Shown here: piece after piece, positions 4,206 through 29,461 of the stretch
Position numbering within the stretch: position 1 is the first letter of the stretch
How the letters are laid out: every line of letters starts with the position of its first letter
From: a bacterium UBP2_UBA5202
GTDB lineage: Bacteria; Edwardsbacteria; AC1; EtOH8
Reading direction: 5' to 3'
Assembly (NCBI GenBank): GCA_002412795.1
Contig: DHVS01000011.1
Coordinates: 19,824-83,823, forward strand
Length of the DNA stretch: 64,000 nt
Program-made: the position numbers and the translations under genes
Notes under the pieces: model-generated
The model's input: only the letters and a program-made list of their open reading frames with translations
What the model was told of the DNA's origin: nothing
Database searches by the model: none

Positions 4206-5299
4206 TGATAATCGTGAGATATAAAGATAGAAAATTATTAGATAAAGTATTTATTTTAGGGGCGGGTTCATCGTATAGTCTAACTGCTGGTCAATCTAAC
4301 AAAAATTGGATAGCACCGTTAGACGCTGAATTCCCAAAACGAATATGTGATTTGCAAAATAAACGTGGTTGGAGCAAAGAAGCTTCACAGAGGATTCTTG
4401 AGGATTGGTTGTATCATGTTGATTTTAATAAAATGAGTTTGGAAAAAGCAATCTCTCAACAAATAGCAGATTTACATTTTCTTGAGGCGATTCAACCCCA
4501 CAAAGGCATTCAACAAAGAAACGCATTAGAGTATTTAGAGGATGTAACATACGTCATATCATATATATTGAAACAAATACGAGTTAAAAACAAAAAAGCT
4601 GAAGAATTGTTCATCCAGAAATTTTTTGATTACGTTAGTGTAGATGCGTGCCCTAATCGGATAATTACTTTTAATTATGATACTATTGTAGATGCTCCTT
4701 TGATTGCAAAATATAAACCACAAGATGTCTATTTTTACAAGATAAAATCTGGAAGGAATATAAAAAATCCAAGAGTGACGCATAATCGTCATCCGTTATT
4801 GTTGAAGTTACATGGATCGGTGAATTGGTATTGCACTAAAGATACTTTTCGTGAAATATTTATTGATCTTTCAAAAACCAATACAAAGTCTTTCGCTATT
4901 AAAGATGATGCTTCAACAAGCCGATATATTAAAGATATATGGATTGATTATACCTGCATATCTCCCAAAGACGATTGTATACCATTAACCATTCCACCAA
5001 TACCAGTAAAGCCGGTAACAGATATTTCAATATTTACATATTTATGGACATGTGCTTATGAATATTTACATGATTGCAAAGAGATTGTTATTTCAGGCTA
5101 TAGTCTTCCAGAAACAGATACCCTGGCTGTGTCATTATTTTCTAAATTCAAGAATATGCAGTTAACAAAATTAACAATAATTGACCCATCTGCTGTTTCA
5201 ATTAGTAAATGGATGGCGATATTTCAGCGCAAGAATATTTCAAGGAAATATAAAATAGAATATTATCCGGATTTTTGTCAGTATATAAAAAATATTTAA
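4205..5299 (+). CDS. SIR2-like (SIR2_2 family) protein, probable NAD+-depleting defence effector
   Basis: FILGAGSS, ITFNYDT and KLHGSVNW correspond to the GAGxS / TTNYD / HGS motifs of the SIR2_2 family. The GTG start overlaps the GmrSD stop (TAGTG) with GGAGG upstream. Confidence 0.6.
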   Translation: MIIVRYKDRKLLDKVFILGAGSSYSLTAGQSNKNWIAPLDAEFPKRICDLQNKRGWSKEASQRILEDWLYHVDFNKMSLEKAISQQIADLHFLEAIQPHKGIQQRNALEYLEDVTYVISYILKQIRVKNKKAEELFIQKFFDYVSVDACPNRIITFNYDTIVDAPLIAKYKPQDVYFYKIKSGRNIKNPRVTHNRHPLLLKLHGSVNWYCTKDTFREIFIDLSKTNTKSFAIKDDASTSRYIKDIWIDYTCISPKDDCIPLTIPPIPVKPVTDISIFTYLWTCAYEYLHDCKEIVISGYSLPETDTLAVSLFSKFKNMQLTKLTIIDPSAVSISKWMAIFQRKNISRKYKIEYYPDFCQYIKNI

Positions 5300-5318
5300 A
5301 TATGTGCCCATAGCCCTG

Positions 5319-5357
5319 CCGTCTGCCTCTGCCCTATATAATAATGGCTACAGCATC
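5319..5357. repeat. 39-bp direct repeat copy 1 (CCGTCTGCCTCTGCCCTATATAATAATGGCTACAGCATC)
   Basis: Matches 5709-5747 at 35/39 positions. Contains a TATAAT-like element. Confidence 0.7.
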
Positions 5358-5420
5358 TAGCGGTTCTTTTTTCATATTGATTGTTTTATTATCAACCATT
5401 TTTATCAATAAGGAGATTCC

Positions 5421-5691
5421 AATGGCTAAGCAACCGATAACTCATTTTTGCGTTAGCAGGTATGCTAAAGTCTTCCCACCAAATATTCATACTCATTCTG
5501 ATTCAGTGGTTTTTTCATTGCCGTTTGAGGAGGCTGCCAAGCTTAATCTGGCGCTCGATGAATCTCTTAAAATAGCAATGCGAGAAGGTAGGAAAACGGG
5601 GGAGTTATTTATTCCCAAGGGATATATTGAACTTGGTTTTACTATAAGTAATAAGCTGGTGGTTGTATATTATTCTGACAAGAATAAATAA
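5421..5691 (+). CDS. hypothetical small protein (90 aa) bracketed by 39-bp direct repeats
   Basis: AAGGAG ribosome-binding site 6 nt upstream of the ATG at 5421. The track ORF 5344-5691 includes an improbable N-terminal extension. Confidence 0.35.
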
Positions 5692-5708
5692 CGGAATTAC
5701 GGTCATTA

Positions 5709-5747
5709 CCGTCTGCCTCCGCCCTATAGAATGATGGCTACGGCATC
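5709..5747. repeat. 39-bp direct repeat copy 2 (CCGTCTGCCTCCGCCCTATAGAATGATGGCTACGGCATC)
   Basis: Direct repeat of 5319-5357. Confidence 0.7.
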
Positions 5748-5759
5748 AGGGCCAGACCT

Positions 5760-6249
5760 TTAAATGTGGCCCTCGTTGGCTTCGTTCGCTGCATTCCAGA
5801 GCCTTCGACCTCCTTCATTCCGCTTCTCAATCTACTTCGGGCATTATACGCTCAGGCACGTAGTTGGCATAATAGTCAATTCCGTGCCTTTGCTTTATCT
5901 TTTAGCTCCAGGCACAGGCAGATTCCTGGATCGCTTACAGGGTAGCGGCGCTGGGTTTCGGCATGGCACCGTATAGCCACCAGGAAAGACGGCGGCTCCA
6001 GGCCAGCTCCAGGTCGCTCGTTCCACCTGTCGCTATTCCGCCGCCTGACCCATAATGCGCATTATGGTTCCTTGTCCCTTGCCTTGCCCCAGCGCTACGC
6101 CCGGAGGGTTTACATAACCGGCATTATGCAAACTACCCTGCTACGCTCTTGTAGGCCAGGCCCGCATCTGCCATTGCCTGTCGCTGATAAACTGGCCGAC
6201 CTGCCACGTTCCCTTTCAGGGGCTACCTTACAGGTTACGGGCTGTGGTC
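5760..6249 (+). ncRNA. candidate structured non-coding RNA / GC-rich non-coding element (class unknown)
   Basis: About 500 nt of GC-rich sequence with no credible ORF on either strand (only short overlapping ORFs). Sits between AT-rich coding blocks and ends at an intrinsic terminator. Contains a perfect 18-bp palindrome at 6050-6067. Confidence 0.3.
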
Positions 6250-6285
6250 TATCTGATACGACCGTTGTTTGATCCAGCAACGGTC
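6250..6285 (+). terminator. rho-independent terminator
   Basis: Stem GACCGTTG/CAACGGTC (6250-6257 / 6268-6275), followed by CTTTTGTATTT. Confidence 0.45.
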
Positions 6286-6372
6286 TTTTGTATTTGCCGG
6301 CACATATATCAAGATATCTGTGGTTGTATCCCCCCACATCCCAGGAGGATATAGTTTCAGGTATAATCGCGG

Positions 6373-6687
6373 ATGGTGTGGGGTGTTTTTAGGCTTGATT
6401 TTGTCGGGGCTAAGATGTATCCTTATAACATGAATGAAGACATGCCGAAATATTACAACCTGACGGCCGGTTCCGAGTTGGACTGCATGGCCAGAAAGCA
6501 CGGGTTTGAACCCGACCTGTATGGCTGGTATGTGATAAGGGACAACGGGCTGAAGGACGTATGGGATGCCTGGGTCAAATGCCGGGCCCTGCAAAAGGAA
6601 GTAAAGATCCGCTGGCCCAAGGCTGATTGGATAATATGCATAATTTCATACGACCTGTACATCATGGTCTTTCCGGAGGAAGAATAG
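6373..6687 (+). CDS. hypothetical protein
   Basis: ORF only; the start could be Met 6415. No motif recognised. Confidence 0.3.
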   Translation: MVWGVFRLDFVGAKMYPYNMNEDMPKYYNLTAGSELDCMARKHGFEPDLYGWYVIRDNGLKDVWDAWVKCRALQKEVKIRWPKADWIICIISYDLYIMVFPEEE

Positions 6688-6772
6688 GTTTCTATAAGCG
6701 GGAGGCCGCCAGGGAATTGATTCTTGAATAAGGTAACATGGTAAATATATAAGTAGAGATAGAGGAGAAACT

Positions 6773-6985
6773 ATGAAAGTACATAAAATTATCGAAGGTA
6801 GTGAGTTGGTATATCCAAAAACAGGCGAGTTTACTGTTTACTGCCCTGTATGTCCTTCTATTTGGATGCAAGACAATGAAAGTACAGAAAAATATTGTCA
6901 GCATCTTCGTTTTTTCTATAACAGATTGAATTTCCATAATCAACAACCGGCCCATGAAATGCTTGGGCTAAAAATCACCCATTGA
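6773..6985 (+). CDS. small hypothetical protein with a CPVC motif
   Basis: GAGGAG ribosome-binding site before the ATG. 70 aa. Confidence 0.4.
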   Translation: MKVHKIIEGSELVYPKTGEFTVYCPVCPSIWMQDNESTEKYCQHLRFFYNRLNFHNQQPAHEMLGLKITH

Positions 6986-7857: not shown

Positions 7858-8523
7858 ATGAGAACGCTGGTGATCCACCCCAATGACTCAACCACTGATT
7901 TTCTGACTGATATCTATTCCGGCAAAAACTGGGAGGTCATAAGAGGTCCAATTAAGAAAGAAGAGCTTGCTGCTAGGATAGCAGACCACGACAGAATAGT
8001 TATGCTGGGACATGGCCTGCCCTCCGGACTAATCGGACACGGAGGCCTGGTAATTGACGAGTCCATGGCTCATCTGCTGCGGGGCAGGAAGTGCGTGTGC
8101 ATCTGGTGCAATGCCGACCAATATGTGTTGCGTCATGGTTTGTCTGGGTTTTACACCGGGATGTTCGTTTCCGAACCGGCCGAGGCCAGGTTGTTCGGCC
8201 TGCCGATTGACGCTGATCCGATTAAGGAGTCCAACCGGCTCTTTGCGGTAGCTGTCAGGGATTCAATTTTTAAGGAGAACATGCTGGAATTGACCAGGCA
8301 GGCCTATAACAGCAAGACCAACCCGGTGATTGATTACAACCGGAACAACTTGTACTCCAGGGATGCTTTGATCGAAGACTGGCAGGGGCCTGGTGGAGGC
8401 GCTGGCCACGATTATGAGATTGACCCTGTTGACAACCATGTGAACGACAAATCAATTGAACAAGCCCATGCAATCGGCAGTATTTTGAAAGTAGGGAAGA
8501 ATAAGTATGAGAAAAATCAGTGA
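7858..8523 (+). CDS. hypothetical protein, possibly a caspase-like His/Cys fold; first gene of the Hsp70-helicase operon
   Basis: AAAGGAG ribosome-binding site before the ATG at 7858. IVMLGHG...CVCIWCNAD spacing resembles a caspase/CHAT His-Gly and Cys dyad (weak). 3' end overlaps the next gene by 17 nt. Confidence 0.45.
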   Translation: MRTLVIHPNDSTTDFLTDIYSGKNWEVIRGPIKKEELAARIADHDRIVMLGHGLPSGLIGHGGLVIDESMAHLLRGRKCVCIWCNADQYVLRHGLSGFYTGMFVSEPAEARLFGLPIDADPIKESNRLFAVAVRDSIFKENMLELTRQAYNSKTNPVIDYNRNNLYSRDALIEDWQGPGGGAGHDYEIDPVDNHVNDKSIEQAHAIGSILKVGKNKYEKNQ

Positions 8524-10933
8524 TGCGTTCCACGCCCTTGTCGCATCCGGCCCGAAGACTCTTAAAGTCCCGGACCAACCGGTGCGGGTCATCGGCATCG
8601 ACCTGGGCACAACCAATTCCACCATTGCCGAGATAATATGGGACCCGGACCAGCCCGGTGAGGTCAAGCCCCGATGCGTGGAGGTAAGCCAGGAAACCAT
8701 GGCCGGGGATTATACTCATATACTGATCCCGTCCGCAGTGGCCTTGCACCAGAGCAAGGCTATCATCGGCGAGGGGGCCAAGCGTCTGTTCCCCCGCTCG
8801 GCCGAGCTGGGCCTGGAGTCTTACAAGGACATTTTTCTGGAATGCAAGAACGACATGGGCAATGACCGCACCTACCACCGGGCGCCCCAGGGTTATCGTT
8901 CCGCGGCCGAGATCGGCGGCCATGTCCTGAAGTTCCTGGCCGGAGCGGCGTCCCAGCAAGGAGGCATCCCAATTTCTCATACGGTGGTCACGGTACCGGC
9001 TTCGTTCCAGATCTCCCAGCGCCAGGACACCGTCAAGGCGGCCGAGCTAGCCGGAATCACCATCGCCAACGGCGACCTGCTGGACGAGCCCATTGCCGCC
9101 TTGTTTGACTATCTGGTGGCTTTTCCGGAGAAGGTGGCCGAGCATCTGACCGGAAAAAAGAACCTGGTTGTGTTCGATTTCGGGGGCGGCACTTGCGATG
9201 TGGCCGTATTCCAACTGGAACAGGCCGACCTCGGGGGCCGGATAGGCATTTCCCCGCTGGCGGTATCTCGCTACCATCGCCTGGGCGGAGGGGACATAGA
9301 CCGGGCCATTGTTCACCAGGTGCTGATACCCCAGCTGATCGAGCAGAACCGCCTGAACAGCTTCGATATCGGGTTTGAGGACCGAAAAAACAAGCTGGAA
9401 CCGGCCCTCTTGGGGGTGGCCGAAGCGCTCAAGATGGGACTTTGCGATGAGATCAGGACACTTATTAGTTTTGGCAAATACAAATCTTCTGACAAGACAA
9501 CGGTAATCAAGATCCAGCCAGGACTCCACACCTGTTATCTTAACCATGAAAAATGGGAGCTGCGTTCACCGGCATTGTCAGCCAAGCAGTTTGAAGACCT
9601 GCTGGTCCCGTTCCTGGACTCTGACCTGCTCTATGCCAGGGAGACCGAATACTTCCTGACTTGCTCGATATTTGCCCCCATCCAGGACGCCTTGGACCGC
9701 TGTGGGCTGGAGACGAAGGACGTGGGCCTGTGCCTTTTGGTGGGCGGCAGCTGCCTTATCCCGCAGGTGTCGGCGGCGGTCAGAAAATACTTTGACAAGG
9801 CAACCATTTTTCAGCATGACAACCCCGATGCCATTCAGGTGGCCGTGGCCAAGGGGGCGGCCTGCCACGCCCTTTCGCTGGCCCTCTATGGGCATGGTCT
9901 GTTCCAGGTAAAAGCCCAGGAGCCCATAAATGTCAGCACAGCCTCGGGTCCGGTCGAGATCATACCCAAGGGGGCCGCTCTGCCTTACCCGGCCGAGGGA
10001 TGGAACACATTCAAGGCGCTGACGGTGCCGTCGACATCAATTAAAGATCCAGTGGCCATGAAGGTGGAGATTACCGCCGGGCCCAAGGACGATGTACGCA
10101 TCCTTTTCAGCCAGACCTGGTTCATTCCTGCCCCGGTCAACCAGGGTGACAGGCTTATATTGAGCTACCGGTTGGACGGCAACCAGGTGTTCGATTTTAA
10201 GCTGCGTTTGGAAAGCGACCCCGAGGGTGAAGGATACGACGGCCAGATCCAGAATCCCCTGACCAATGTGGTCAATCCCAACAAGACCAGGATCCTGATC
10301 CAGCAGGACGAAGAGGAACTGAGGACCGGGTCGGTGCCCAAAAGACTGATTCCCAGCAAGATAGTGGAGATCGCCCAGAACTATGCCAAGATCAAGCAGT
10401 ACGAGAAGGCCATTTCCTATCTGCAGAGGGCCTTGAGGATGGGCGACAGCCCCGATCCAAATATTCTGAACCTGATGGGTATTTATAGCGGGCATATAGG
10501 TGACACCGCCCATGAGGAGAAATATTACCGGGAATCCGCTGCCCAAGGAGGCGGCTCGGCATCCTTGTTTAATCTGGCCTTGAGCCAGAAAGAGAGAGGC
10601 AAGAACCAGGAGGCCCTGAAGACAGTCGAAGAGGCTGTCGAGGAGGGAGCGGACGGTCCGACCATGACGCTGCAGTCCATGCTGCAGGAAAAGACCGGGG
10701 ACAAACGGGGTTCGGAAAAATCGATCAAGGAAGCCTTTGAATTGTTCCGCCCATTTTCGGCCATGACAGACTGGGAGCTGGGTTGGTATATCACAGCCTG
10801 CAAAATGTCCGGACGCGATTCCGACCAGGAGAAGGCCAAAAAGGAAATGAGCCGCCGGGGCCAAAAGGGTGATATGACCGGAGGGGCCGATGGGATGCTA
10901 CCGGGCCTTTCCGGGGACTTGGTCCGGCGATGA
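8507..10933 (+). CDS. Hsp70 (DnaK)-like actin-fold ATPase with C-terminal beta-sandwich and TPR-like extension
   Basis: IGIDLGTTNS (Hsp70 signature 1) and VVFDFGGGTCDVAV (signature 2 / phosphate-2) are present. Roughly 430 aa follow the ATPase core, ending in TPR-like helices. Stop overlaps the next start (ATGA). Confidence 0.8.
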   Translation: MRKISDAFHALVASGPKTLKVPDQPVRVIGIDLGTTNSTIAEIIWDPDQPGEVKPRCVEVSQETMAGDYTHILIPSAVALHQSKAIIGEGAKRLFPRSAELGLESYKDIFLECKNDMGNDRTYHRAPQGYRSAAEIGGHVLKFLAGAASQQGGIPISHTVVTVPASFQISQRQDTVKAAELAGITIANGDLLDEPIAALFDYLVAFPEKVAEHLTGKKNLVVFDFGGGTCDVAVFQLEQADLGGRIGISPLAVSRYHRLGGGDIDRAIVHQVLIPQLIEQNRLNSFDIGFEDRKNKLEPALLGVAEALKMGLCDEIRTLISFGKYKSSDKTTVIKIQPGLHTCYLNHEKWELRSPALSAKQFEDLLVPFLDSDLLYARETEYFLTCSIFAPIQDALDRCGLETKDVGLCLLVGGSCLIPQVSAAVRKYFDKATIFQHDNPDAIQVAVAKGAACHALSLALYGHGLFQVKAQEPINVSTASGPVEIIPKGAALPYPAEGWNTFKALTVPSTSIKDPVAMKVEITAGPKDDVRILFSQTWFIPAPVNQGDRLILSYRLDGNQVFDFKLRLESDPEGEGYDGQIQNPLTNVVNPNKTRILIQQDEEELRTGSVPKRLIPSKIVEIAQNYAKIKQYEKAISYLQRALRMGDSPDPNILNLMGIYSGHIGDTAHEEKYYRESAAQGGGSASLFNLALSQKERGKNQEALKTVEEAVEEGADGPTMTLQSMLQEKTGDKRGSEKSIKEAFELFRPFSAMTDWELGWYITACKMSGRDSDQEKAKKEMSRRGQKGDMTGGADGMLPGLSGDLVRR

Positions 10934-12186
10934 GCTGGCTTGTTCCCGAAAATGAGCTTACCCCCGAGCAATTGCGGGCCATCAGGCTGGGACCGGAGGA
11001 AAACCGGGCAATAGTTGGGGGCCCTGGTTCCGGCAAGACCCAGATCCTCTTGTACCGGGCACGGTTTCTCAAGGATAAGCACAGGATATTTCCGGCAAAA
11101 TTCAGGGTGCTGGTCTATACCAATGTACTTAAGGATTACATTCGCTCCGCCCTACCGCTTTTGGGGCTGCCGGACGAATGCGTGCTTACCTTCGACCATT
11201 GGTGCCGGTTGTTTTATGAGGAACACATCGGCCGGACGCTTCCCTGGGACGCTACACACAAAACGCCAGATTTTGCCGCAATACGGCAGGCGGTGGCTGC
11301 CTTGATCGAAAACCGTAAGGTCAAACTTCCCCTTTATGACTTCGTGCTGGTGGACGAGGGGCAGGACTTGGATATAGGGGTCTTCAACCTGCTATCGAAG
11401 ATCGCCAAGCATGTGACGGTCTGCCTGGATTCCAAACAGAAGATCTATGACACAGATTCCAACGAACAGAGCATACTTTCCGTACTGGGAATACAAAGGC
11501 GCAACATCAGCCTGATAGACGCTTTCAGGGTCTGCCCCTACCTGGTGCGTCTGGCCTCGGTGCTGATTCCAGAACAGGGAGAGAGGGATGCTTTCGTAAA
11601 CCAAGCCAGGACCGAACAGGTGGAAAGGCAAATGCCGTTCCTGTACTTGGCAGATTCATATGCCGATGAGAAGGAAAAGCTCTTTCAGATGATCCGCGAG
11701 CGCCAGCTTAAGAACGATTCCATAGCCATTTTGTTCCCCATCAACAAACAGGTCTTCGGATATGCCCAGGGCCTGAAGGAGGCCGGGATCGAGGTCGAGG
11801 TGCCTCAAAAGGGGAAGACCAAGGGTAAAATCCCCACCCATGATTTCGGAAGCAGCCGCCCCAAGCTGATGTCCTACCATAGCGCCAAGGGCCTAACATT
11901 TGATTCTGTGTTTATGCCGAGGCTTACATCCAGGGCCTTCGAATTTACTAGGCAAAGCCAAGAACGGATATCCAAACTGCTGTTCGTGGCCATTACCAGA
12001 GCCACCAAATGGGTGTTCATCTCGACAGATAAAAAGGATATGCTTGACGTTATCCGCGACAAGATGCTTCCGATGGAAAGCACAGGGCAAATCTTCGTCG
12101 GTCGCATGGGGCAAAATGTAAGGGGATCACAACCATCAAAAATCCCCGAAATTGAAACAGAAAACGACCCGCTGGATTTTTTATAA
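10930..12186 (+). CDS. minimal UvrD/PcrA-like SF1 helicase (P-loop NTPase)
   Basis: LTPEQLRAI (Q motif), GGPGSGKT (Walker A), VLVDEGQDL (motif II), MSYHSAKGLTFDSVFM (motif V), LFVAITRATKWVFIS (motif VI). Confidence 0.7.
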   Translation: MSWLVPENELTPEQLRAIRLGPEENRAIVGGPGSGKTQILLYRARFLKDKHRIFPAKFRVLVYTNVLKDYIRSALPLLGLPDECVLTFDHWCRLFYEEHIGRTLPWDATHKTPDFAAIRQAVAALIENRKVKLPLYDFVLVDEGQDLDIGVFNLLSKIAKHVTVCLDSKQKIYDTDSNEQSILSVLGIQRRNISLIDAFRVCPYLVRLASVLIPEQGERDAFVNQARTEQVERQMPFLYLADSYADEKEKLFQMIRERQLKNDSIAILFPINKQVFGYAQGLKEAGIEVEVPQKGKTKGKIPTHDFGSSRPKLMSYHSAKGLTFDSVFMPRLTSRAFEFTRQSQERISKLLFVAITRATKWVFISTDKKDMLDVIRDKMLPMESTGQIFVGRMGQNVRGSQPSKIPEIETENDPLDFL

Positions 12187-17392: not shown

Positions 17393-20300
17393 ATGTCATT
17401 AGATCTTACATTCATCACCAACGAATCCGGCAAAGACCTACGTGACCGTTTTAATGTCTTGCTAGGTAAGGATACACGTTATTTCGATTGCCTCGTCGGT
17501 TATTTCTTCATCAGTGGGTTTTATAAACTATATCCTTCGCTCATCAAGACTGAAAAAATACGCATTCTCGTCGGTATTAAAACCGATACTGATATTTACG
17601 AGTTGATTCAGACAGCGAAGGCTCAACAGGAATTTGTTCTTGAGTCACATGCATACGTCCGGCAGCAACTGCCCGCTGAAATCCTAAGTGAGTTTCAGAG
17701 ATCTGGTGATAGCGTTGACATAGAGGATGGCGTTCGGAAATTTGTGGATTGGATTAAATCCGGTAAGCTGGAGGTCCGTGCCTATCCGTCAGAACGGGTT
17801 CATGCAAAGCTCTATATCATGACATTCCAGGAGGGTGACCGCGATAAAGGCCGCGTCATCACCGGATCGAGCAATTTCACTAAGGCAGGCTTGATAGACA
17901 ATTTGGAATTCAATGTCGAGTTAAAGAACCGCTCCGATTATGACTTCGCCATCCAGAAGTTTAACGAGCTTTGGGCCAAGTCTGTTGACGTGACTGAGGA
18001 TTACGTCACGACGATAGAAGTCAAATCACCATACGCCCAATTCACACCCTACGAACTATATTTAAAGTTCCTCTACGAGTACTTCCGTGGCGAACTCAAT
18101 TTGCCCGACGAAATCGAGGATATGTATGTGCCCACGGGTTTCAAGAAACTGAAATACCAGGAAGAGGCCGTGTTGAACGCACGGAAAGTGCTCGATGAAT
18201 ACGGCGGTGCGTTTCTGTCCGACGTGGTCGGTCTCGGTAAAACCTACATGTCTGCTTTGCTCGCCCAACACCTCAACGAGCCTTGTCTCGTCATCGCCCC
18301 ACCGCACCTGCTCGATGAGCACAATCCTGGATCGTGGCCGAATGTCTTCCGTGAATTTGGTGTCAGAGGCTTTTTGTGCGAATCCCTCGGCAAGCTAGAT
18401 TCCCTGCGGGACCGCGACCTTCAGAAGTTCACAACCGTCTTCATTGACGAATCGCACCGCTTCCGCACCGAAGATACACAGAGCTATGAGATGCTCGCAC
18501 AGATATGCCGTGGTAAGCGCGTCGTTTTGGTCTCGGCTACACCGTTAAACAACACACCGCAGGACATCCTGAGCCAGATCAAACTGTTCCAGCCTGGCAA
18601 AAATAGTACTATTCCCAACGTCCGCAATCTTGAAGCCTTCTTCGGTTCGCTCCGGCGGCGGCTCGAAGGACTAGACCGCCAACGCGACCATGAGGTCTAT
18701 TTCCGTACGGTACAGGAGAATGCCCGGCAGACCCGCGAGAAAATACTCAAGTTCTTGATGATCCGCCGTACCCGCACCGAGATCGAGCGATACTACGGCG
18801 AAGACTTAAAGAAACAAGGACTGAAGTTCCCGGAGGTCGTCAATCCCGAACCGCTTTTCTATAAGTTCAACAAGGTCGAGGCCGAAGTCTTCGATGAGAC
18901 GATCCGTTCGCTGACGCATGACTTTAAATATGCCCGCTATACTCCGTTGGCCTACTACAACGGGGAGCGCGATGAACAGGATGTTCAGAGCCAGCGCAAC
19001 CTCGCCAAGTTCATGAAAATCCTAACGGTTAAGCGGCTCGAAAGTAGTTTCACCGCGTTCCTGTCCACGCTTGGGCGCTTCATCCATACCTACGAGCGTG
19101 TCATCGCAGAGTTCCAGAAGGGCCACGTATTCATCAGCAAGAAACACATCGGAAAAATCTTTGAATTACTAGAATCGGACGATCAGGAGGGCATTGACCG
19201 GCTGTTAGAGGAAGACAAGGCCGAGAAACTGGCGGCTAAAGATTTTATGCCGACGTTTATCGCTGATCTAGAAAATGATTTGAAGGCGCTGAAATCCATT
19301 CGCAACCAGTGGAATAAAGTTACCCGCGACCCCAAGTGGGAATCGTTCCGGGGCATCCTCAAGAAATCGCCCTATATCAAGGACAGCAAGATCATTATTT
19401 TCAGCGAGTCAAAGGAAACCGCCGACTATCTCGCCGGTAAAATCCGCGACGAGGTCGAACCCAAAACCCTACTTTATACTGGCGAGTCGCTTCACAGCGT
19501 CCGCGAGGATGTTATCGCCAACTTTGATGCCAAGGCGTATCGGCCCAAGGACGATTACCGCATATTAGTCGCCACAGAAGTACTCGCCGAAGGCGTGAAT
19601 CTCCACCGTTCCAACGTTGTCATCAACTATGATATTCCATGGAATCCCACCCGCCTCATCCAGCGCGTGGGTCGCGTCAACCGTGTGGACACGAAGTTCG
19701 ACAAGATTCACACATACAACTTTTTCCCGACTGATGAGGGCAACGACCTCATCAAGCTCCGCGAAGCCGCCGAGGCGAAAATCCACGCTTTCATTCAAAT
19801 GCTCGGTGCGGATGCCCGTCTGCTGACCGAGGGCGAGGAAATCGTCTCGCACGACTTGTTCGCCCGGTGGAATTCCAAAAAGACAATAACCGGCGAGGAC
19901 GAGGCGGAGGAAACAGAACTCAAGTTTCTCACCGAAATCCGCGCTCTTCGGGACAAACAACCGGATTTGTTCGAACGCATCAAACGCCTACCCAAGAAAG
20001 CCCGCTCCACTCGCGTCTTGTTGGATGAACCGGCAGTCCAGAATCCCCCGGCGTTACTCACTTATTTCCGCCAAGGCAAGCTCGACAAATTCTTCCTCGG
20101 TACGTCCGGTAACCAACCTACCGTCGAACTGGACTTCATGACCGCCGCGAAAATCTTGAAGCCCACCGATCCCAAAGAACCTCGCCAATCCATCCCTCAC
20201 GAGTTCTACGATTTGCTCGATAAGAACAAGGCTACCTTTGTCATCGCCACCACCGCCGATGCTGAACAAACTTCTGCCACCCATCGCGGTAGCCCGAATG

Positions 20301-20608
20301 ACGCCTATATCTTAAAACGTCTTAAGGATAAAGCCGTCCGTCGCTGTCAGCAGTTCACCGAGGATGATGAGGAATTCGTCGTTAAAGTTATTCGACTCGT
20401 GGAAGATGGTTCGCTACCGAAAGCTACGGCCAAGAAGATCGCAGCCGCCTTGAAGAAGCCGGAAAATCTACCACCTCTCAAGGTCCTTGCCGTCCTGCGC
20501 CGTGACGTCAAGAACGAGTATTTCCAGACCAGCCCCGCAGCACACGCCAGCCAGTCGCTCACCCCTCGTGAAGTCATTCTTTCATCATATCTTGTTAAAC
20601 AGCCATGA
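17393..20608 (+). CDS. PLD-family (HKD) nuclease fused to SNF2/SF2 helicase - restriction subunit of a split Type ISP-like R-M system
   Basis: N-terminal HAKLYIM...GSSNFT HKD motif. Helicase DESHRFR (motif II), LVSATPLNN (motif III), QRVGRVNR (motif VI). Stop overlaps the MTase start (ATGA). Confidence 0.8.
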   Translation: MSLDLTFITNESGKDLRDRFNVLLGKDTRYFDCLVGYFFISGFYKLYPSLIKTEKIRILVGIKTDTDIYELIQTAKAQQEFVLESHAYVRQQLPAEILSEFQRSGDSVDIEDGVRKFVDWIKSGKLEVRAYPSERVHAKLYIMTFQEGDRDKGRVITGSSNFTKAGLIDNLEFNVELKNRSDYDFAIQKFNELWAKSVDVTEDYVTTIEVKSPYAQFTPYELYLKFLYEYFRGELNLPDEIEDMYVPTGFKKLKYQEEAVLNARKVLDEYGGAFLSDVVGLGKTYMSALLAQHLNEPCLVIAPPHLLDEHNPGSWPNVFREFGVRGFLCESLGKLDSLRDRDLQKFTTVFIDESHRFRTEDTQSYEMLAQICRGKRVVLVSATPLNNTPQDILSQIKLFQPGKNSTIPNVRNLEAFFGSLRRRLEGLDRQRDHEVYFRTVQENARQTREKILKFLMIRRTRTEIERYYGEDLKKQGLKFPEVVNPEPLFYKFNKVEAEVFDETIRSLTHDFKYARYTPLAYYNGERDEQDVQSQRNLAKFMKILTVKRLESSFTAFLSTLGRFIHTYERVIAEFQKGHVFISKKHIGKIFELLESDDQEGIDRLLEEDKAEKLAAKDFMPTFIADLENDLKALKSIRNQWNKVTRDPKWESFRGILKKSPYIKDSKIIIFSESKETADYLAGKIRDEVEPKTLLYTGESLHSVREDVIANFDAKAYRPKDDYRILVATEVLAEGVNLHRSNVVINYDIPWNPTRLIQRVGRVNRVDTKFDKIHTYNFFPTDEGNDLIKLREAAEAKIHAFIQMLGADARLLTEGEEIVSHDLFARWNSKKTITGEDEAEETELKFLTEIRALRDKQPDLFERIKRLPKKARSTRVLLDEPAVQNPPALLTYFRQGKLDKFFLGTSGNQPTVELDFMTAAKILKPTDPKEPRQSIPHEFYDLLDKNKATFVIATTADAEQTSATHRGSPNDAYILKRLKDKAVRRCQQFTEDDEEFVVKVIRLVEDGSLPKATAKKIAAALKKPENLPPLKVLAVLRRDVKNEYFQTSPAAHASQSLTPREVILSSYLVKQP

Positions 20609-23600
20609 ACACCCAACAAGCCCGTTCCCGCATTGCCGAAACATTTCCCCAGCCGTTCAACCGTACAAAGTTTCTCGAATTTACGCGTAACTTGCTGAAC
20701 AAGTTCGACGAGACCAAAGCGGTGCAGTGGAACGCCACCTACGTTAAGGACGCCTTTAAACCTCATGTCTCCCGGTTTGAGCGTCTCGGCACTTACACGT
20801 CGCCCGATAATGAAAAGCTTGACGTGCTGATCGTCCACCTGACCAACAAATCCAAGCTTGAGCGCACCCGAACCGCAATCCGCAACTTCGTCGCCGACCA
20901 TCTTAAAACACGCGACCAAAAGGATGCAGCCCTCGTCGCGTTTGTCTCCCCTACTGAACGGCAATGGCGCTTCTCCTATGTCAGGATGGAATATACTGCC
21001 GTCGAAACAGAGTCCGGCAAGGTTGGCGTCGAGACGCGCCTGACGCCTGCCCGTCGTTATTCCTACATCGTTGGCGAAGGCGAAAGTTGCCATACTGCTC
21101 AAACCCGCTTTCTCGCCTTGCTCCAGGATACCGAAAAAAATCCTACGCTGGCCCAACTTGAAGATTCTTTCAGCGTTGAAGCCGTCACCAAGGAATTCTT
21201 CAACCAATATGCCTCGTTGTTCGGCGACATTGAGGCTGCGCTCCAGAAGCTCGCTGCCAAAGATCCCGTGATCGGCAAGGAGTTCAAGACTAAGAAAGTT
21301 AGCACCGTAGACTTCGCCAAGAAGCTTCTGGGCCAGATTGTGTTCCTATATTTCCTGCAAAAGAAGGGCTGGCTTGGTGTGGCGAAGGGAAAGGATTGGG
21401 GCACTGGCCCGCATGATTTCCTGCGACGGCTAGTGGATCAATCATCTGATCAGGTACCCAATATAAATATCTTCAACGATATTCTCGAACCACTATTTTA
21501 CGATACGCTGGCCACCGATCGTGGGCATGAGGCGTTGTGCAAACATTATAAATGCCGCATCCCTTTCCTAAACGGCGGCCTATTCGAGCCGATTTGCGAT
21601 TACGACTGGCGCAAGACCCACATCAACTTGCCCAATAAGCTTTTCACCAATACCCAGCACAACGACGCCGGAGATATCGGTACGGGTGTCCTCGATGTGT
21701 TTGACCGCTACAACTTCACCGTCAACGAGGCAGAGCCGTTGGAAAAGGAAGTGGCCATCGACCCGGAAATGTTAGGCAAAGTCTTTGAAAACTTGATCGA
21801 GGAAAATCGCCGTAAAGGCCTCGGCTCGTTCTATACACCTCGCGAGATTGTCCATTACATGTGCCGGGTAAGTCTTATCAACTATCTCTACACCGCACTT
21901 AATGCTGATAAGGAAACCGTCCCACGTAAGGATGTCGAAATATTCATCCATCATGGAGAGCAAATCTCATATTACGAAGCCGTCGAGGCGCGGTCTGCTA
22001 TCAAAATGCCCAAGAGCATTGAACAGAACGCCCGAATGATTGACGAAAAGCTTTTCACCATTACCGTCTGCGATCCAGCCGTTGGATCGGGCGCGTATCC
22101 GGTGGGCATGATGGCGGAGATTGTCCGCGCGCGTTGCTCACTGACTCCCTACTTCAACGATGTTCACGACCGCACGCCTTACCACTTCAAACGCCACGCT
22201 ATTCAGAACTGCCTTTATGGCGTCGACATTGACCACGGCGCAGTAGAGATCGCCAAACTCCGTCTCTGGCTTTCGCTCGTTGTGGACGAGGAGGACGTGA
22301 AGCAGATCAAACCGCTGCCCAATCTTGATTACAAGATCGTAACTGGAAATTCGTTACTGGGGGTAGAGAAAACGCTGTTCAACGATCAGGCCTTCCGTCA
22401 GCTCGAAAAGTTGAAGCCTCTATTTTTTGATGAAACCGATCATGCACAGAAGGAGAAACTGAAGAAGAAAATCGGCGAATTGATCCACGAACTCACAAAC
22501 GGTAAGGAGATTTTTGATTTCGAGATCTATTTTTCCGAAGTGTTCCACTCCAAGCACGGATTCGATGTGCTGCTGGCAAACCCGCCCTACGTTGGGCAGA
22601 AGGGCAACAAAGAAATCTTTCAGGAAATCGCGCGGACAGATTTCGGGAAAAGATTCCATCAACGAAGAATGGACTTGTTCTATTATTTCATCCACCGTGC
22701 CTTGGATTTAGGCCACAGCCAAACGCAAATTGCTTTCATCACGACCAATTATTTCATTACGGCAACGTATGCCGACAAGCTCAGAAAAGATCTCTTTGAA
22801 CGGGCCACTTTTCGAAGCCTGATTAACTTCAATGAACTCCGCATCTTTGAATCTGCTCTTGGCCAGCATAACATGGTGTCTTTGTTTGAACGTGGCAAAG
22901 ACCCCGACGCCAGCGTGCTTACGGCCACCACCAAACGGGTCGGATTTGCGACGTCTTCTGTTCTGAATACGATTGTTTCAGGCCGTGATTCCGAAACTGA
23001 ATACCGGGAGGTGGGGCAACCCGACCTGTATCACGGCGAACAGCACTACATAACGCTTGTCGGTAGCAGTGGGTCGGTGCGTGACCCCAAAATGGCCATC
23101 TTGGAGAAAATGGCGCGAAACGGTAAGTTGCTCGGTACACTTTGCAGCGTGTTTCAGGGAATTGTCACGGGAGCAGACAAAGTTAGCCCAAAACACGTAT
23201 CTCGATTCGGGGTCAAGGCAACGCCGGGATCGGGAATATTTGTTCTGACTGAGGCTGAACTGCGGGCGTTAAGATTGGGAAAAAGGGAACTCCAATACAT
23301 TCGTCCTTGGTTCAAGAATTCTGACATCCGGCGCTATTGGTGTTCCGTGGACAATTCCTTTCACCTTATTTATCGGTCGAGCAAACACGATGAGGACGAT
23401 CTGCCAGACCTAAAGAAGCATTTCGAGCAATTCAAGATACTCTTGGTAAACAGGAATGTCCGTGCTGGCGAGGTGACGCTCCCGCAATACGATGATTTTG
23501 TTCGGGGCAAAGGGCACATTGATTATGTGATGATCGCTTCTGCCATGAAGGCAGGAAAGTATTGCTGCATCTCCTATGCTCGTGATGAAAAACTGTTTAA

Positions 23601-24012
23601 TGGCCCGAAAATTGTTTCGCCTCAACGCAGTCCCCAAAACACGTTTTGCTTCAATGACGTTCCTTGGTATGCAAGCGCAGATGTCTATTACATCACCACG
23701 AAAGACCCCTCGGTTTCGCTCAAATATGTTTTGGCACTGATAAATTCGCGGCTGTATTTTCTTTGGCTCTATTTGAAAGGGAAACGGAAAGGAGAAATGC
23801 TGGAGCTTTACCAAAAGCCTCTCTCGGAAATTCCGATAAAACACATCGCTTTCGATGAGCAGAAACCTTTCATCAAACTGGTTGACCGCATACTCACGGC
23901 GAAGCAGCGGGGTGCCGAGGCGGACACGAGAGCGATGGAGCGGGAGATAGACGAGTTGGTGTACCAGTTGTATGGGTTGAGCCAGGAAGAAATCAAAATT
24001 GTAGAGGGTTAA
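20605..24012 (+). CDS. Eco57I/PglX-like N6-adenine DNA methyltransferase (gamma class) with C-terminal target-recognition region
   Basis: FYTPREIV (motif X) and LLANPPYVG (NPPY motif IV). About 1135 aa, typical of PglX / type IIG / ISP methyltransferase-TRD proteins. Confidence 0.8.
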   Translation: MNTQQARSRIAETFPQPFNRTKFLEFTRNLLNKFDETKAVQWNATYVKDAFKPHVSRFERLGTYTSPDNEKLDVLIVHLTNKSKLERTRTAIRNFVADHLKTRDQKDAALVAFVSPTERQWRFSYVRMEYTAVETESGKVGVETRLTPARRYSYIVGEGESCHTAQTRFLALLQDTEKNPTLAQLEDSFSVEAVTKEFFNQYASLFGDIEAALQKLAAKDPVIGKEFKTKKVSTVDFAKKLLGQIVFLYFLQKKGWLGVAKGKDWGTGPHDFLRRLVDQSSDQVPNINIFNDILEPLFYDTLATDRGHEALCKHYKCRIPFLNGGLFEPICDYDWRKTHINLPNKLFTNTQHNDAGDIGTGVLDVFDRYNFTVNEAEPLEKEVAIDPEMLGKVFENLIEENRRKGLGSFYTPREIVHYMCRVSLINYLYTALNADKETVPRKDVEIFIHHGEQISYYEAVEARSAIKMPKSIEQNARMIDEKLFTITVCDPAVGSGAYPVGMMAEIVRARCSLTPYFNDVHDRTPYHFKRHAIQNCLYGVDIDHGAVEIAKLRLWLSLVVDEEDVKQIKPLPNLDYKIVTGNSLLGVEKTLFNDQAFRQLEKLKPLFFDETDHAQKEKLKKKIGELIHELTNGKEIFDFEIYFSEVFHSKHGFDVLLANPPYVGQKGNKEIFQEIARTDFGKRFHQRRMDLFYYFIHRALDLGHSQTQIAFITTNYFITATYADKLRKDLFERATFRSLINFNELRIFESALGQHNMVSLFERGKDPDASVLTATTKRVGFATSSVLNTIVSGRDSETEYREVGQPDLYHGEQHYITLVGSSGSVRDPKMAILEKMARNGKLLGTLCSVFQGIVTGADKVSPKHVSRFGVKATPGSGIFVLTEAELRALRLGKRELQYIRPWFKNSDIRRYWCSVDNSFHLIYRSSKHDEDDLPDLKKHFEQFKILLVNRNVRAGEVTLPQYDDFVRGKGHIDYVMIASAMKAGKYCCISYARDEKLFNGPKIVSPQRSPQNTFCFNDVPWYASADVYYITTKDPSVSLKYVLALINSRLYFLWLYLKGKRKGEMLELYQKPLSEIPIKHIAFDEQKPFIKLVDRILTAKQRGAEADTRAMEREIDELVYQLYGLSQEEIKIVEG

Positions 24013-24046
24013 CCCCACACCCCCACCCACAACCTGGAGCCAAACC

Positions 24047-24850
24047 ATGATCGGCGCCATAGCTGGAGACATCATAGGCTCGGTTTATGAATATACCCCT
24101 ACTAAAACCTTGGATTTCCCTTTATTCAGCCAGGATTCCGAGCTTACCGATGATACCGTCCTTACCGTGGCTGTGGCCGACTGCCTGCTGAACAAGAAGG
24201 ACTATGTCAAGACATTCAGGGATTACGCCCATCGATACCCTCACTGCGGTTTTGGCGGGGGTTTTGCACATTGGGCCATTTCACCAGATCCCAAACCTTA
24301 TAACAGTTGTGGCAATGGATCGGCCATGCGGGTCAGTCCTATTGGCTTCTTCCACGATTCAATTAAAGAGGTATTGAGGGAGGCCAAAGCCAGCGCCGAG
24401 GTCACCCATAACCACCCCGAGGGCATCAAAGGAGCACAGGCCACGGCCGCCGCTGTATTTATGGCCAGGACCGGAAGCAGCAAGCCGGAGATCAAGGATT
24501 ATGTCACCAAACAGTTCAGTTACAACCTGGATCGGAAGCTGGACGATATTAGAAAGACCTACGAATACGATATAACCAGCCAAGGGACGGTGCCGGAGTC
24601 CATAATAGCCTTCCTGGAGGCAAAAGACTACGAGGACGCCATCCGCAAGGCGATTTCGCTGGGAGGGGATGCTGATACCTTGGCCTGCATCACCGGAGGG
24701 ATTGCCCAGGCCTTTTACAAGCATATTCCTATCCAGGTATTAATGGAAGCCAGGAAGCGGCTGACCCCGGACCTGCTGAAGATAGTGGATCAGTTCGAGA
24801 AAAGATGCCCGGATGCTGCACCAATATTAAAGGGACCGGGCCTGAGTTGA
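24047..24850 (+). CDS. ADP-ribosylglycohydrolase (ARH/DraG family)
   Basis: GAIAGDIIGSVYE, DDT, GNGSAMRVSPIG, GGDADT, ACITGGIAQAFY - the full set of ARH-family motifs. Confidence 0.8.
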   Translation: MIGAIAGDIIGSVYEYTPTKTLDFPLFSQDSELTDDTVLTVAVADCLLNKKDYVKTFRDYAHRYPHCGFGGGFAHWAISPDPKPYNSCGNGSAMRVSPIGFFHDSIKEVLREAKASAEVTHNHPEGIKGAQATAAAVFMARTGSSKPEIKDYVTKQFSYNLDRKLDDIRKTYEYDITSQGTVPESIIAFLEAKDYEDAIRKAISLGGDADTLACITGGIAQAFYKHIPIQVLMEARKRLTPDLLKIVDQFEKRCPDAAPILKGPGLS

Positions 24851-25397: not shown

Positions 25398-25431
25398 AGA
25401 AAAGAGGAGGTTTTTAGCCTCCTCTTTTTTT
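25398..25431 (-). terminator. bidirectional intrinsic terminator immediately after the XRE repressor gene
   Basis: GAGGAGG...CCTCCTC hairpin flanked by an A-run and a T-run. Confidence 0.55.
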
Positions 25432-25814
25432 CATGCCTTTTTTGGTTTGCTGCTGGGTGGAATATTATCGGGTTTCCTTTTCTGCTGATTTTCTAAAAGG
25501 AATTTTGCATGCAACAGAACAGTTTTCCTTAGGTCATTGTCCAGCTTTTGGTATATATCAAAAAGCGCACCGGCCACCGGGTCAATTTTTATTATGATCT
25601 CGTTGCTTATCTTGTCAGAATCTCCAACCAGGTAATCTATGGATACGTTCAGTGACTTTGCCAACCGCGTAAGTGATTTTGACTGGAGCTGTACCAAATC
25701 GCCGCTTTCTAACCTGGATATCGTGGCCTGGGTAATGGCAGCTTTACTGGCCAGTTCCTTTTGGGTCAAGCCAAGCTTTAACCGGCTAGCATTAATTCTG
25801 TCCTTTAACAACAT
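25431..25814 (-). CDS. XRE-family HTH transcriptional regulator (phage CI/Cro-like repressor)
   Basis: LGLTQKELASKAAITQATISRLESG helix-turn-helix. Divergent from the rep gene. Confidence 0.75.
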   Translation of the reverse strand: MLLKDRINASRLKLGLTQKELASKAAITQATISRLESGDLVQLQSKSLTRLAKSLNVSIDYLVGDSDKISNEIIIKIDPVAGALFDIYQKLDNDLRKTVLLHAKFLLENQQKRKPDNIPPSSKPKKA

Positions 25815-29372: not shown

Positions 29373-29385
29373 ATATCAATAACGT

Positions 29386-29461
<76 letters not shown>

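Follow-up and report, generated by a model that had tools for sequence, protein, structure and literature searches.

Our study examined a non-coding block at about 5760–6290 on the + strand of a 64,000-nt window of DNA from the bacterium UBP2_UBA5202 (contig DHVS01000011.1); all positions given here are those of the whole window. The block is a three-part non-coding mosaic, made up of the modules R2, M and T, at the end of an operon in a transfer RNA (tRNA)-Met defence island. From sequence comparison, we think it about as probable as all other readings together that the left transcription unit of the island closes with this block as its non-coding 3′ end, giving a lineage-specific structured RNA that is read from the + strand and ends at a true terminator. 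Searches of 17 species genomes of the family and 19 of the phylum, together with a metagenome pattern scan, split the block into the modules R, M and T. These have different distributions, and the single unit described in an earlier reading of the sequence (the original prediction) was not borne out. In related genomes R and T flank another domain, P, and this arrangement is referred to here as R-P-T.

The non-coding stretch extends from 5692 to 6372, from the end of an open reading frame (ORF) at 5691 to the next gene. It had been described as strongly GC-rich, which holds only relative to its AT-rich flanks, as the guanine plus cytosine (GC) content of the block is 54–57 %, compared to 54.9 % for the whole genome (2.52 Mb, 42 contigs) and 30–37 % for the flanking cargo. 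It is the flanks that are unusual, and the finding as first reported is corrected to a block that is host-like in composition, composite and functionally clear only in its terminator. Its parts are as follows.

5707–5762, + strand: R2, the 5′ module of R-P-T, a helix 2/3 hairpin with the GGGCCAGACC extension
5763–~6189, + strand: M, a module of ~420 nt
5763–5929, + strand: 5′ domain of M, with 60–85 % identity between copies and many indels
5930–6151, + strand: core of M, ~220 nt, 89–96 % identical in 6 distinct copies
6152–6189, + strand: 3′ tail or linker of M, partly common to the copies G012:C1, L035 and L032
6190–6327, + strand: T, the module with the terminator (three-hairpin domain and terminator together, 6190–6296), common to G001, G012:C9 and G016 and partly to L035
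6190–6259, + strand: T domain, three hairpins and the 3′ strand of helix 1
6260–6295, + strand: intrinsic terminator, a 10-pair hairpin (6260–6285) followed by TTTTGTATTT

Conserved pairing in T and R-P-T

The structured-RNA reading is well supported for T and R-P-T, judging by paired changes between copies. The three hairpins of T have the stems TGGC/GCCA, CCCT-TTC-AGGG (6211–6221) and ACCT-TAC-AGGT (6225–6235), and the 3′ strand of helix 1 is GGGCTGTGG (6239–6247). An alignment of five T sequences revealed two hairpins that were invariant or nearly so and a third, hairpin 10, that was fully compensated (4/4 pairs, with 0 broken cells in the 5 sequences). Its variants were ACCU/AGGU, GACC/GGUC, GCAC/GUGC and GUCC/GGAC, to which G005 adds ACAC/GUGU. 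The pairs of T comprised 21 G-U cells compared to 5 A-C cells, and the + strand is therefore favoured. A covariance model of T found the module in 6/19 phylum genomes.

R and T were seen to flank a P domain of ~125 nt in five genomes (G001, G012:C9, G016, G009 and G005). The resulting R-P-T element of ~250 nt forms one predicted fold of about 10 helices, which the 5′ end of R closes by pairing with GGGCUGUGG of T. In this fold 94.3 % of the cells were paired, and double changes were found in 15/67 pairs (27 cells), compared to 0–3 pairs in slid controls. Pairing was kept through many double changes across three genera; these counts come from 5 sequences in 2–3 clades, with the structure derived from the same sequences in which the changes were then counted. 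Compensatory pairs beyond the controls, by which structured non-coding RNAs (ncRNAs) are generally recognized, were found for R-P-T and for hairpin 10 of T, and weakly for M. The predicted structured ncRNA with an intrinsic terminator thus holds for T and the wider R-P-T, on the basis of compensated pairs, more G-U than A-C cells on the + strand and terminator-like ends in 6/6 units, although support is weaker for M.

In related islands, R-P-T follows directly after the last left-hand cargo ORF, and it lies downstream of ArdC and RadC in 5/6 genomes. Within 10 kb of the G005 copy (locus L048, G005:C80), homologues of ArdC, RadC and integrase are lacking. R-P-T may occur outside this island type too. 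The window version has M in place of P, a complete T, and an R2 that keeps the R hairpin and the GGGCCAGACC extension.

The terminator and the region beyond it

A + strand hairpin with a T-run had been predicted at the end of the block and was found at 6260–6285, with its tail at 6286–6295. It has the G+C-rich hairpin and the T-run on the transcribed strand that define a Rho-independent terminator, and no other terminator-like site was found on the + strand in 5200–6800. Terminator-like ends on their own strand were present in 6/6 units: the window, G016, G005 and G009 were scanned, and G001 and G012:C9 have the same terminator hairpin as the window. This hairpin is compensated in G016 and is replaced in G005 by a different hairpin and T-run. 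One promoter-like site was seen on the − strand (5870–5843) and was not conserved in other copies.

A further feature lies just past the terminator, outside the block.

6301–6322, no strand assigned: inverted repeat, CACATATATC-AA-GATATCTGTG

This repeat is conserved in G001, its arms flank TTGACA in G012:C9, and in G016 a promoter-like site stands directly past the terminator. The repeat is likely to be an operator at the promoter of the next operon, and it is a better operator candidate than the palindromes of M. Because of this repeat and the promoter-like site of G016, the terminator would be followed by a regulated-promoter-like region belonging to the next operon.

Conservation and coding status of M

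Six distinct DNA copies of M were available, namely those of the window, G012:C1, G012:C4 and the metagenome loci L024, L035 and L032 (partial). The metagenome pattern matches included 8/14 true M copies, several duplicating those of G012, and 6/14 that share the palindrome only. Palindrome matches at four loci of genome_contigs were rejected as chance, as the alignment ended within 19–27 nt. The core of M (89–96 %) is more conserved than the RadC gene, which has a DNA identity of 75–82 %, whilst the 3′ tail has an identity of 33–71 % between copies. M has the same orientation as RadC in 4/4 loci that include RadC, and it starts ~10–110 nt past the stop codon of a co-directional ORF. Other islands have M but neither R nor T, and M is always co-directional with the upstream genes. 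The ORFs upstream of M vary, comprising SIR2-like plus an 89-aa (amino acid) ORF, PD40, DnaJ-TPR, Mrr-nSTAND3 and a secreted protein with a FlgD_ig/CHU_C-type C-terminal sorting region, and the genes downstream also differ between loci.

By comparison of its copies, M is non-coding. Frames are not kept from copy to copy, owing to single-base indels in the core and to 5′-domain indels that are not of triplet length, and the ATG ORF at 5764–5976 reads ATG-TAG in copy L035. The original prediction that the block holds no plausible ORF was borne out, as Pfam matched 0/3 stop-free frames of the block at E≤1. An exhaustive phmmer search with a + strand stop-free frame of 108 aa against 1.84 billion representatives gave 4 matches, all artefacts: two were ORFs called across other M copies in a shifted frame, and the remaining two were low-complexity. 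Neither phmmer nor Pfam thus gave a real protein family. Two entries of the protein library, P0001 and P0002, are called proteins that translate further M copies in other assemblies; P0002, known only as a called ORF, appears to be without the perfect palindrome.

The perfect palindrome CCATAATGCGCATTATGG was confirmed at 6050–6067 and was invariant in 6/6 M DNA copies. The reported recurrence of its half-site GCATTATG is real, although its position is 6121–6128, one base off the 6120–6127 first given. An imperfect palindrome, TTACATAACCGGCATTATGCAA, at 6110–6131 is related to the perfect one, with centres ~61 bp apart, and the two have a CATAAT/ATTATG half-site in common. The 2.52 Mb genome contains 74 perfect palindromes with arms of at least 9 (356 counted minus 282 N runs); the expectation for 64 kb is about 2, and 1 was found in the window. 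By itself the palindrome does not exceed chance, and the notable point is its conservation. N runs, which are masked stretches in G000 contigs C13, C38 and others, had inflated the raw count. The real repeated palindromes of G000 included CCTCCCCTCGAGGGGAGG (12 copies) and GGCAATTCATGAATTGCC (9 copies), which may be small repeat families.

M folds more stably than shuffled sequences on both strands (z −3.4 on the + strand and −3.96 on the − strand). The consensus + strand fold has 92 pairs, of which 8 were changed on both sides, compared to 2.2 in shuffles and 1–4 in slid controls, and the covariation signal is therefore weak beside that of R-P-T. The closing helix, AGAGC (5798–5802) with GCTCT (6145–6149), carries two different compensations; the hairpin AGGCACG (5854–5860) with CGTGCCT (5883–5889) keeps its base through loops of ~7 to 30 nt. 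The outer helix of the core pairs ACAGGGTAG (5937–5945) with CTACCCTGC (6133–6141). The core helices say little either way because the core hardly varies. The structured-RNA reading is weakly supported for M, and pairing alone leaves its strand unsettled. AGCCTTC stands near the 5′ boundary of M and, in three copies, GAAGGCT near the 3′ boundary, and the same pair forms a helix of P. M may have been grafted on this stem of P, or the likeness may be a coincidence.

The R repeat and its cassette-like arrangement

Upstream of the block lie a second copy of R and a small ORF.

5312–5357, + strand: R1, the upstream copy of the ~50-nt R repeat, starting 13 nt past the stop of the SIR2-like gene
5422–5691, + strand: 89-aa cargo ORF between R1 and R2, with an AAGGAG ribosome-binding site

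R1 and R2 are ~90 % identical, and R was further found in G001, G012:C9 (three copies), G012:C1, G016, G009 and G005. R is an imperfect hairpin with a variable centre. R1 carries the 5′ strand of helix 1, CCATAGCCC, which is able to pair with GGGCTGTGG in T, and R2 lacks this strand. A −10-like box in R (TATAAT in R1, TAGAAT in R2) has no −35 partner and was uncalled by the promoter scan. The 89-aa ORF gave no Pfam, PADLOC, PHROGs or NCBIfam match, and its cassette was absent from the other 16 family genomes (0/16).

R1 has a resident 5′ flank and a foreign 3′ flank, and R2 a foreign 5′ flank and a resident 3′ flank. This is the pattern that the Campbell-type insertion of an R-carrying circle would leave, an idea suggested by the flanks. 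Direct repeats between single-gene units, as in integron cassettes, were present both here (R1-ORF89-R2) and in G012:C9 (locus L013, 8655–10517), where three direct R copies separate two ORFs. Integron attC sites have R″/R′ core sites, RYYYAAC ... GTTRRRY. No GTT triplet or integron-type core site was visible in the aligned R copies, and the island integrase scored 73.6 bits against the TIGR02249 cut-off of 265, the rest of the genome not having been searched for IntI. Cassette capture at R is put forward only as an idea because the island integrase is not of the integron type, no integron-type core site is visible and the 89-aa cassette is unseen elsewhere. The R-flanked single-gene units nevertheless hint at how cargo is added.

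Proposed role of the block

If the block is indeed the 3′ end of the left transcription unit, RNA polymerase arriving from the cargo genes would transcribe R2, M and T and stop at 6285–6295. Termination would insulate the operon that follows, for which an operator-like repeat and a promoter of its own seem to be present. What is left would be a strongly folded 3′ end, from which a stable RNA of ~0.55–0.6 kb (~0.3 kb where P is present) could be released. M would be an exchangeable domain of this RNA, and R an apparent recombination anchor where small cargo cassettes were added. Candidate roles for the RNA are message stabilization, island regulation and action as an anti-defence decoy.

If transcribed, R-P-T and M would be two linked structured ncRNA families that no Rfam model describes, a claim of novelty that rests on Rfam scans and similarity searches. 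The Rfam 15 scan gave 0 matches in 5500–6500 at E≤10 and, at the gathering score, only 2 tRNAs in the whole window. ARAGORN found no transfer-messenger RNA (tmRNA). BLAST of the block gave no match in complete E. coli genomes, phage records or plasmids, and two exact-pattern scans of viral contigs gave 0 matches. R-P-T and M occupy a constant place in the backbone of a defence island, with a cargo region on either side, in a small phylum that has been little studied. Were the proposal true, such islands would keep conserved RNA parts besides protein genes, and these would serve as a landmark for locating cargo hotspots in these genomes.

Several results weigh against this proposal. Transcription, strand and ends of the RNA are inferred from sequence, and the structures were derived from the same 5 or 6 sequences (2–3 clades) in which the changes were counted. 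No sigma-70-type promoter was found on the + strand in 5200–6800, and there is accordingly no sign of a separate RNA gene. The window version is without P and the helix-1 5′ strand of R2, and the element here may be a broken derivative. M is too conserved for a good test, as most pairs never vary; its − strand fold is at least as good (z as above; 5/87 pairs compensated), and its G-U tally is even between strands (46 vs 47). M and R-P-T were seen only in a small phylum (19 species genomes) and a few metagenome contigs. A search for complementarity of at least 13 nt between 5707–6296 and the rest of the island, on both strands, found none; it gave one 12-mer, which is about chance level.

Alternative explanations

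The block could instead work as folded single-stranded DNA, either as an attC-like capture site or as an origin of transfer (oriT), a single-strand origin or an Frpo/ssi promoter. We regard this as unlikely, although compensated helices suit single-stranded DNA equally well, direct R copies flank small ORFs with flanks as after Campbell-type circle insertion, R is an imperfect hairpin with a variable centre, and ArdC-like and RadC neighbours are typical of the leading regions of transferred DNA. An oriT calls for a relaxase and a coupling protein, and neither was found for the families searched: the two relaxase families gave MobA_MobL in 0/2 (G000 and G012) and Relaxase (PF03432) in 0/4 host genomes, and the coupling protein TraG-D_C was found in 0/4. 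The island integrase is not of the integron type, R has no visible GTT-type core site, and the 89-aa cassette is confined to the window among the family genomes. The element also lies downstream rather than upstream of genes, on a + strand without −35/−10 boxes, and its terminator-like ends and T-runs are kept despite sequence change. A variant that we hold to be less probable again takes R-P-T as the folded docking site of a non-integron gene-capture system and M as an ORF-less cassette encoding a large structured RNA. Small circles with a ~40-nt R core would insert Campbell-fashion at the R of the tRNA-Met island element, single-gene cargo would stack upstream of the fixed terminator, and the M-encoded RNA would have its own, possibly anti-defence, function. 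That the block is non-functional linker DNA between cargo modules, similar through recent recombination and with only the terminator at work, also seems unlikely. Conservation is higher in the M core than in the neighbouring protein genes or in the 5′ domain of M, R-P-T pairing is maintained through double changes in three genera, and orientation and position are constant. Ragged M boundaries, module losses that vary (R+M, M alone, M+T), the parts of the R-P-T fold missing from the window version and the few copies known would nonetheless fit a linker.

M might also be a double-stranded DNA regulatory region, its palindromes at 6050–6067 and 6110–6131 being operators for a dimeric helix-turn-helix (HTH) protein. 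Such a role would suit the invariance of the perfect palindrome in 6/6 DNA copies, the half-site common to both sites and the XRE-type HTH proteins encoded by the islands, one of them ~300 nt from M in G012:C1. It is, however, improbable: no gene is consistently beside M, as both flanks vary; M is found where genes end and, in the window, is followed by a terminator; and conservation extends over 220 nt, beyond the two sites. The promoter region of the island HTH gene does not contain the motif, which occurs nowhere else in the genome, the P0002 copy (a called ORF only) appears to lack the perfect palindrome, and the compensated helices would be left unexplained. Finally, the block might be what remains of a protein gene, or else a retron msr/msd or part of a group II intron, as suggested by its strong fold, its long inverted repeats and stop-free frames of some length (108 aa on the + strand); this is largely refuted and highly improbable. 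The artefactual phmmer matches, the lack of a Pfam match and the frame-breaking indels between copies oppose a decayed gene. The reverse transcriptase RVT_1 (PF00078) was found in 0/2 genomes (G000 and G012), whereas control genomes did give matches, and no reverse transcriptase was among the neighbours of any M copy. A retron, the template of a defence-associated reverse transcriptase and a group II intron are all unlikely because G000 and G012 are without RVT_1. Retron msr/msd RNAs have terminal inverted repeats a1/a2 and a branching G; M has closing helices (5798–5802/6145–6149 and 5937–5945/6133–6141), which are not diagnostic without a reverse transcriptase. Group II intron fragments, RNase P and tmRNA, all considered in the original prediction, gave no Rfam match even at E≤10.

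Relation to described elements

GOLLD, ROOL, HEARO and OLE are large structured ncRNAs of prophages and mobile elements, and all are Rfam families. The suggestion that the block is a large ncRNA of the prophage type stands by analogy only, as no Rfam family matches. R-P-T and M resemble these RNAs in being several hundred nt long, multi-branched, lineage-restricted and located in mobile elements; they differ in giving no match at E≤10, in being modular (with an inner P or M) and in forming the 3′ end of an operon. Integron attC sites are comparable to R, which is an imperfect hairpin repeat in direct orientation between short, mostly single-gene units, with a structure better conserved than the sequence of its centre. 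In contrast to attC, the island integrase is not of the integron type, there is no GTTRRRY-type core and there are only 2–3 repeats per array, and R is the 5′ part of a larger fold with a terminator at its end.

The nearest published concept found, by analogy and in literature searches looking for comparators, is the STAXI motif (RF01728). This is a candidate structured RNA near genes for Ssb, topoisomerase, antirestriction and XerDC-integrase proteins, and its action as RNA or as single-stranded DNA is openly discussed (PMC2864571). Both are conserved, structured non-coding elements of mobile DNA beside antirestriction and integrase genes. There is no sequence or structure match to the block. 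STAXI is a tandemly repeated pseudoknot of Enterobacterales, whereas the element here folds as one unit of many helices, ~250 nt (R-P-T) or ~590 nt (R2-M-T) long, and belongs to a small phylum, apparently of the FCB type.

Frpo/ssi elements are long hairpins with −35 (TTGACA) and −10 (TATAAT) boxes upstream of leading-region ORFs, and they share with the block a strongly folding non-coding stretch among antirestriction-type genes (PMC11541004). The block does not fit their definition. It has no + strand −35/−10 boxes and stands after genes and before a terminator, and no conjugation genes of the families searched were found in four host genomes. The insulator of Tn916 is described as an intrinsic terminator that separates transcription units in a mobile element (PMC11658703). 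The block is like a Tn916-type insulator or a 3′-untranslated-region-derived RNA, with a terminator between consecutive transcription units of a mobile element. It differs from such an insulator in that a conserved, covarying fold of 250–590 nt precedes the terminator, far beyond what termination needs.

Island setting

The island lies between direct repeats of 39 bp that match the tRNA-Met 5′ half, one at 18526–18564 of contig C35 (about −1297 in window coordinates) and the other at 29385–29423 of the window. It is ~30.7 kb long, its left limit is ~1.3 kb before the window start, and the chromosome to its left is ordinary. In the left repeat copy the tRNA is truncated and has a TTGACG...TATAAT promoter of its own, and the intact tRNA adjoins the integrase. 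The left part of the island holds an ArdC-like antirestriction gene and RadC, followed by the AT-rich cargo before the block (AbiJ/HEPN-like, GmrSD-like and SIR2-like genes and the 89-aa ORF). The cargo after the block comprises an Hsp70-like/TPR protein, a UvrD-like helicase, a PLD-SNF2 helicase, an Eco57I-type methylase and an ADP-ribosylglycohydrolase. The right end is formed by an XRE-type HTH gene on the opposite strand, a radical-SAM gene, an excisionase-like HTH_17 gene, a tyrosine integrase and tRNA-Met. One HTH protein of the island is encoded at 25431–25814. The tyrosine integrase belongs to the generic Xer-like recombinases.

G012 has three related islands or remnants, on contigs C1, C4 and C9 (loci L011, L012 and L013), with M on C1 and C4 and R-P-T on C9. 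On C1, R and M come immediately after two large secreted proteins whose C-termini carry sorting-type domains, and the HTH and radical-SAM end of the island lies beyond them.

Within the window, the region 8507–12186 encodes a protein of 808 aa that combines an N-terminal Hsp70-like ATPase with TPR repeats and overlaps the start of a 418-aa UvrD-like helicase. The former had no PADLOC match and the latter resembles GajB and NERD+UvrD models; together they may be an undescribed two-gene defence pair. Further right, at 17393–24850, the PLD-SNF2 helicase (1071 aa), the Eco57I/MmeI-type methylase (1135 aa) and the ADP-ribosylglycohydrolase stand in a row, and this cargo looks like a BREX or type ISP system.

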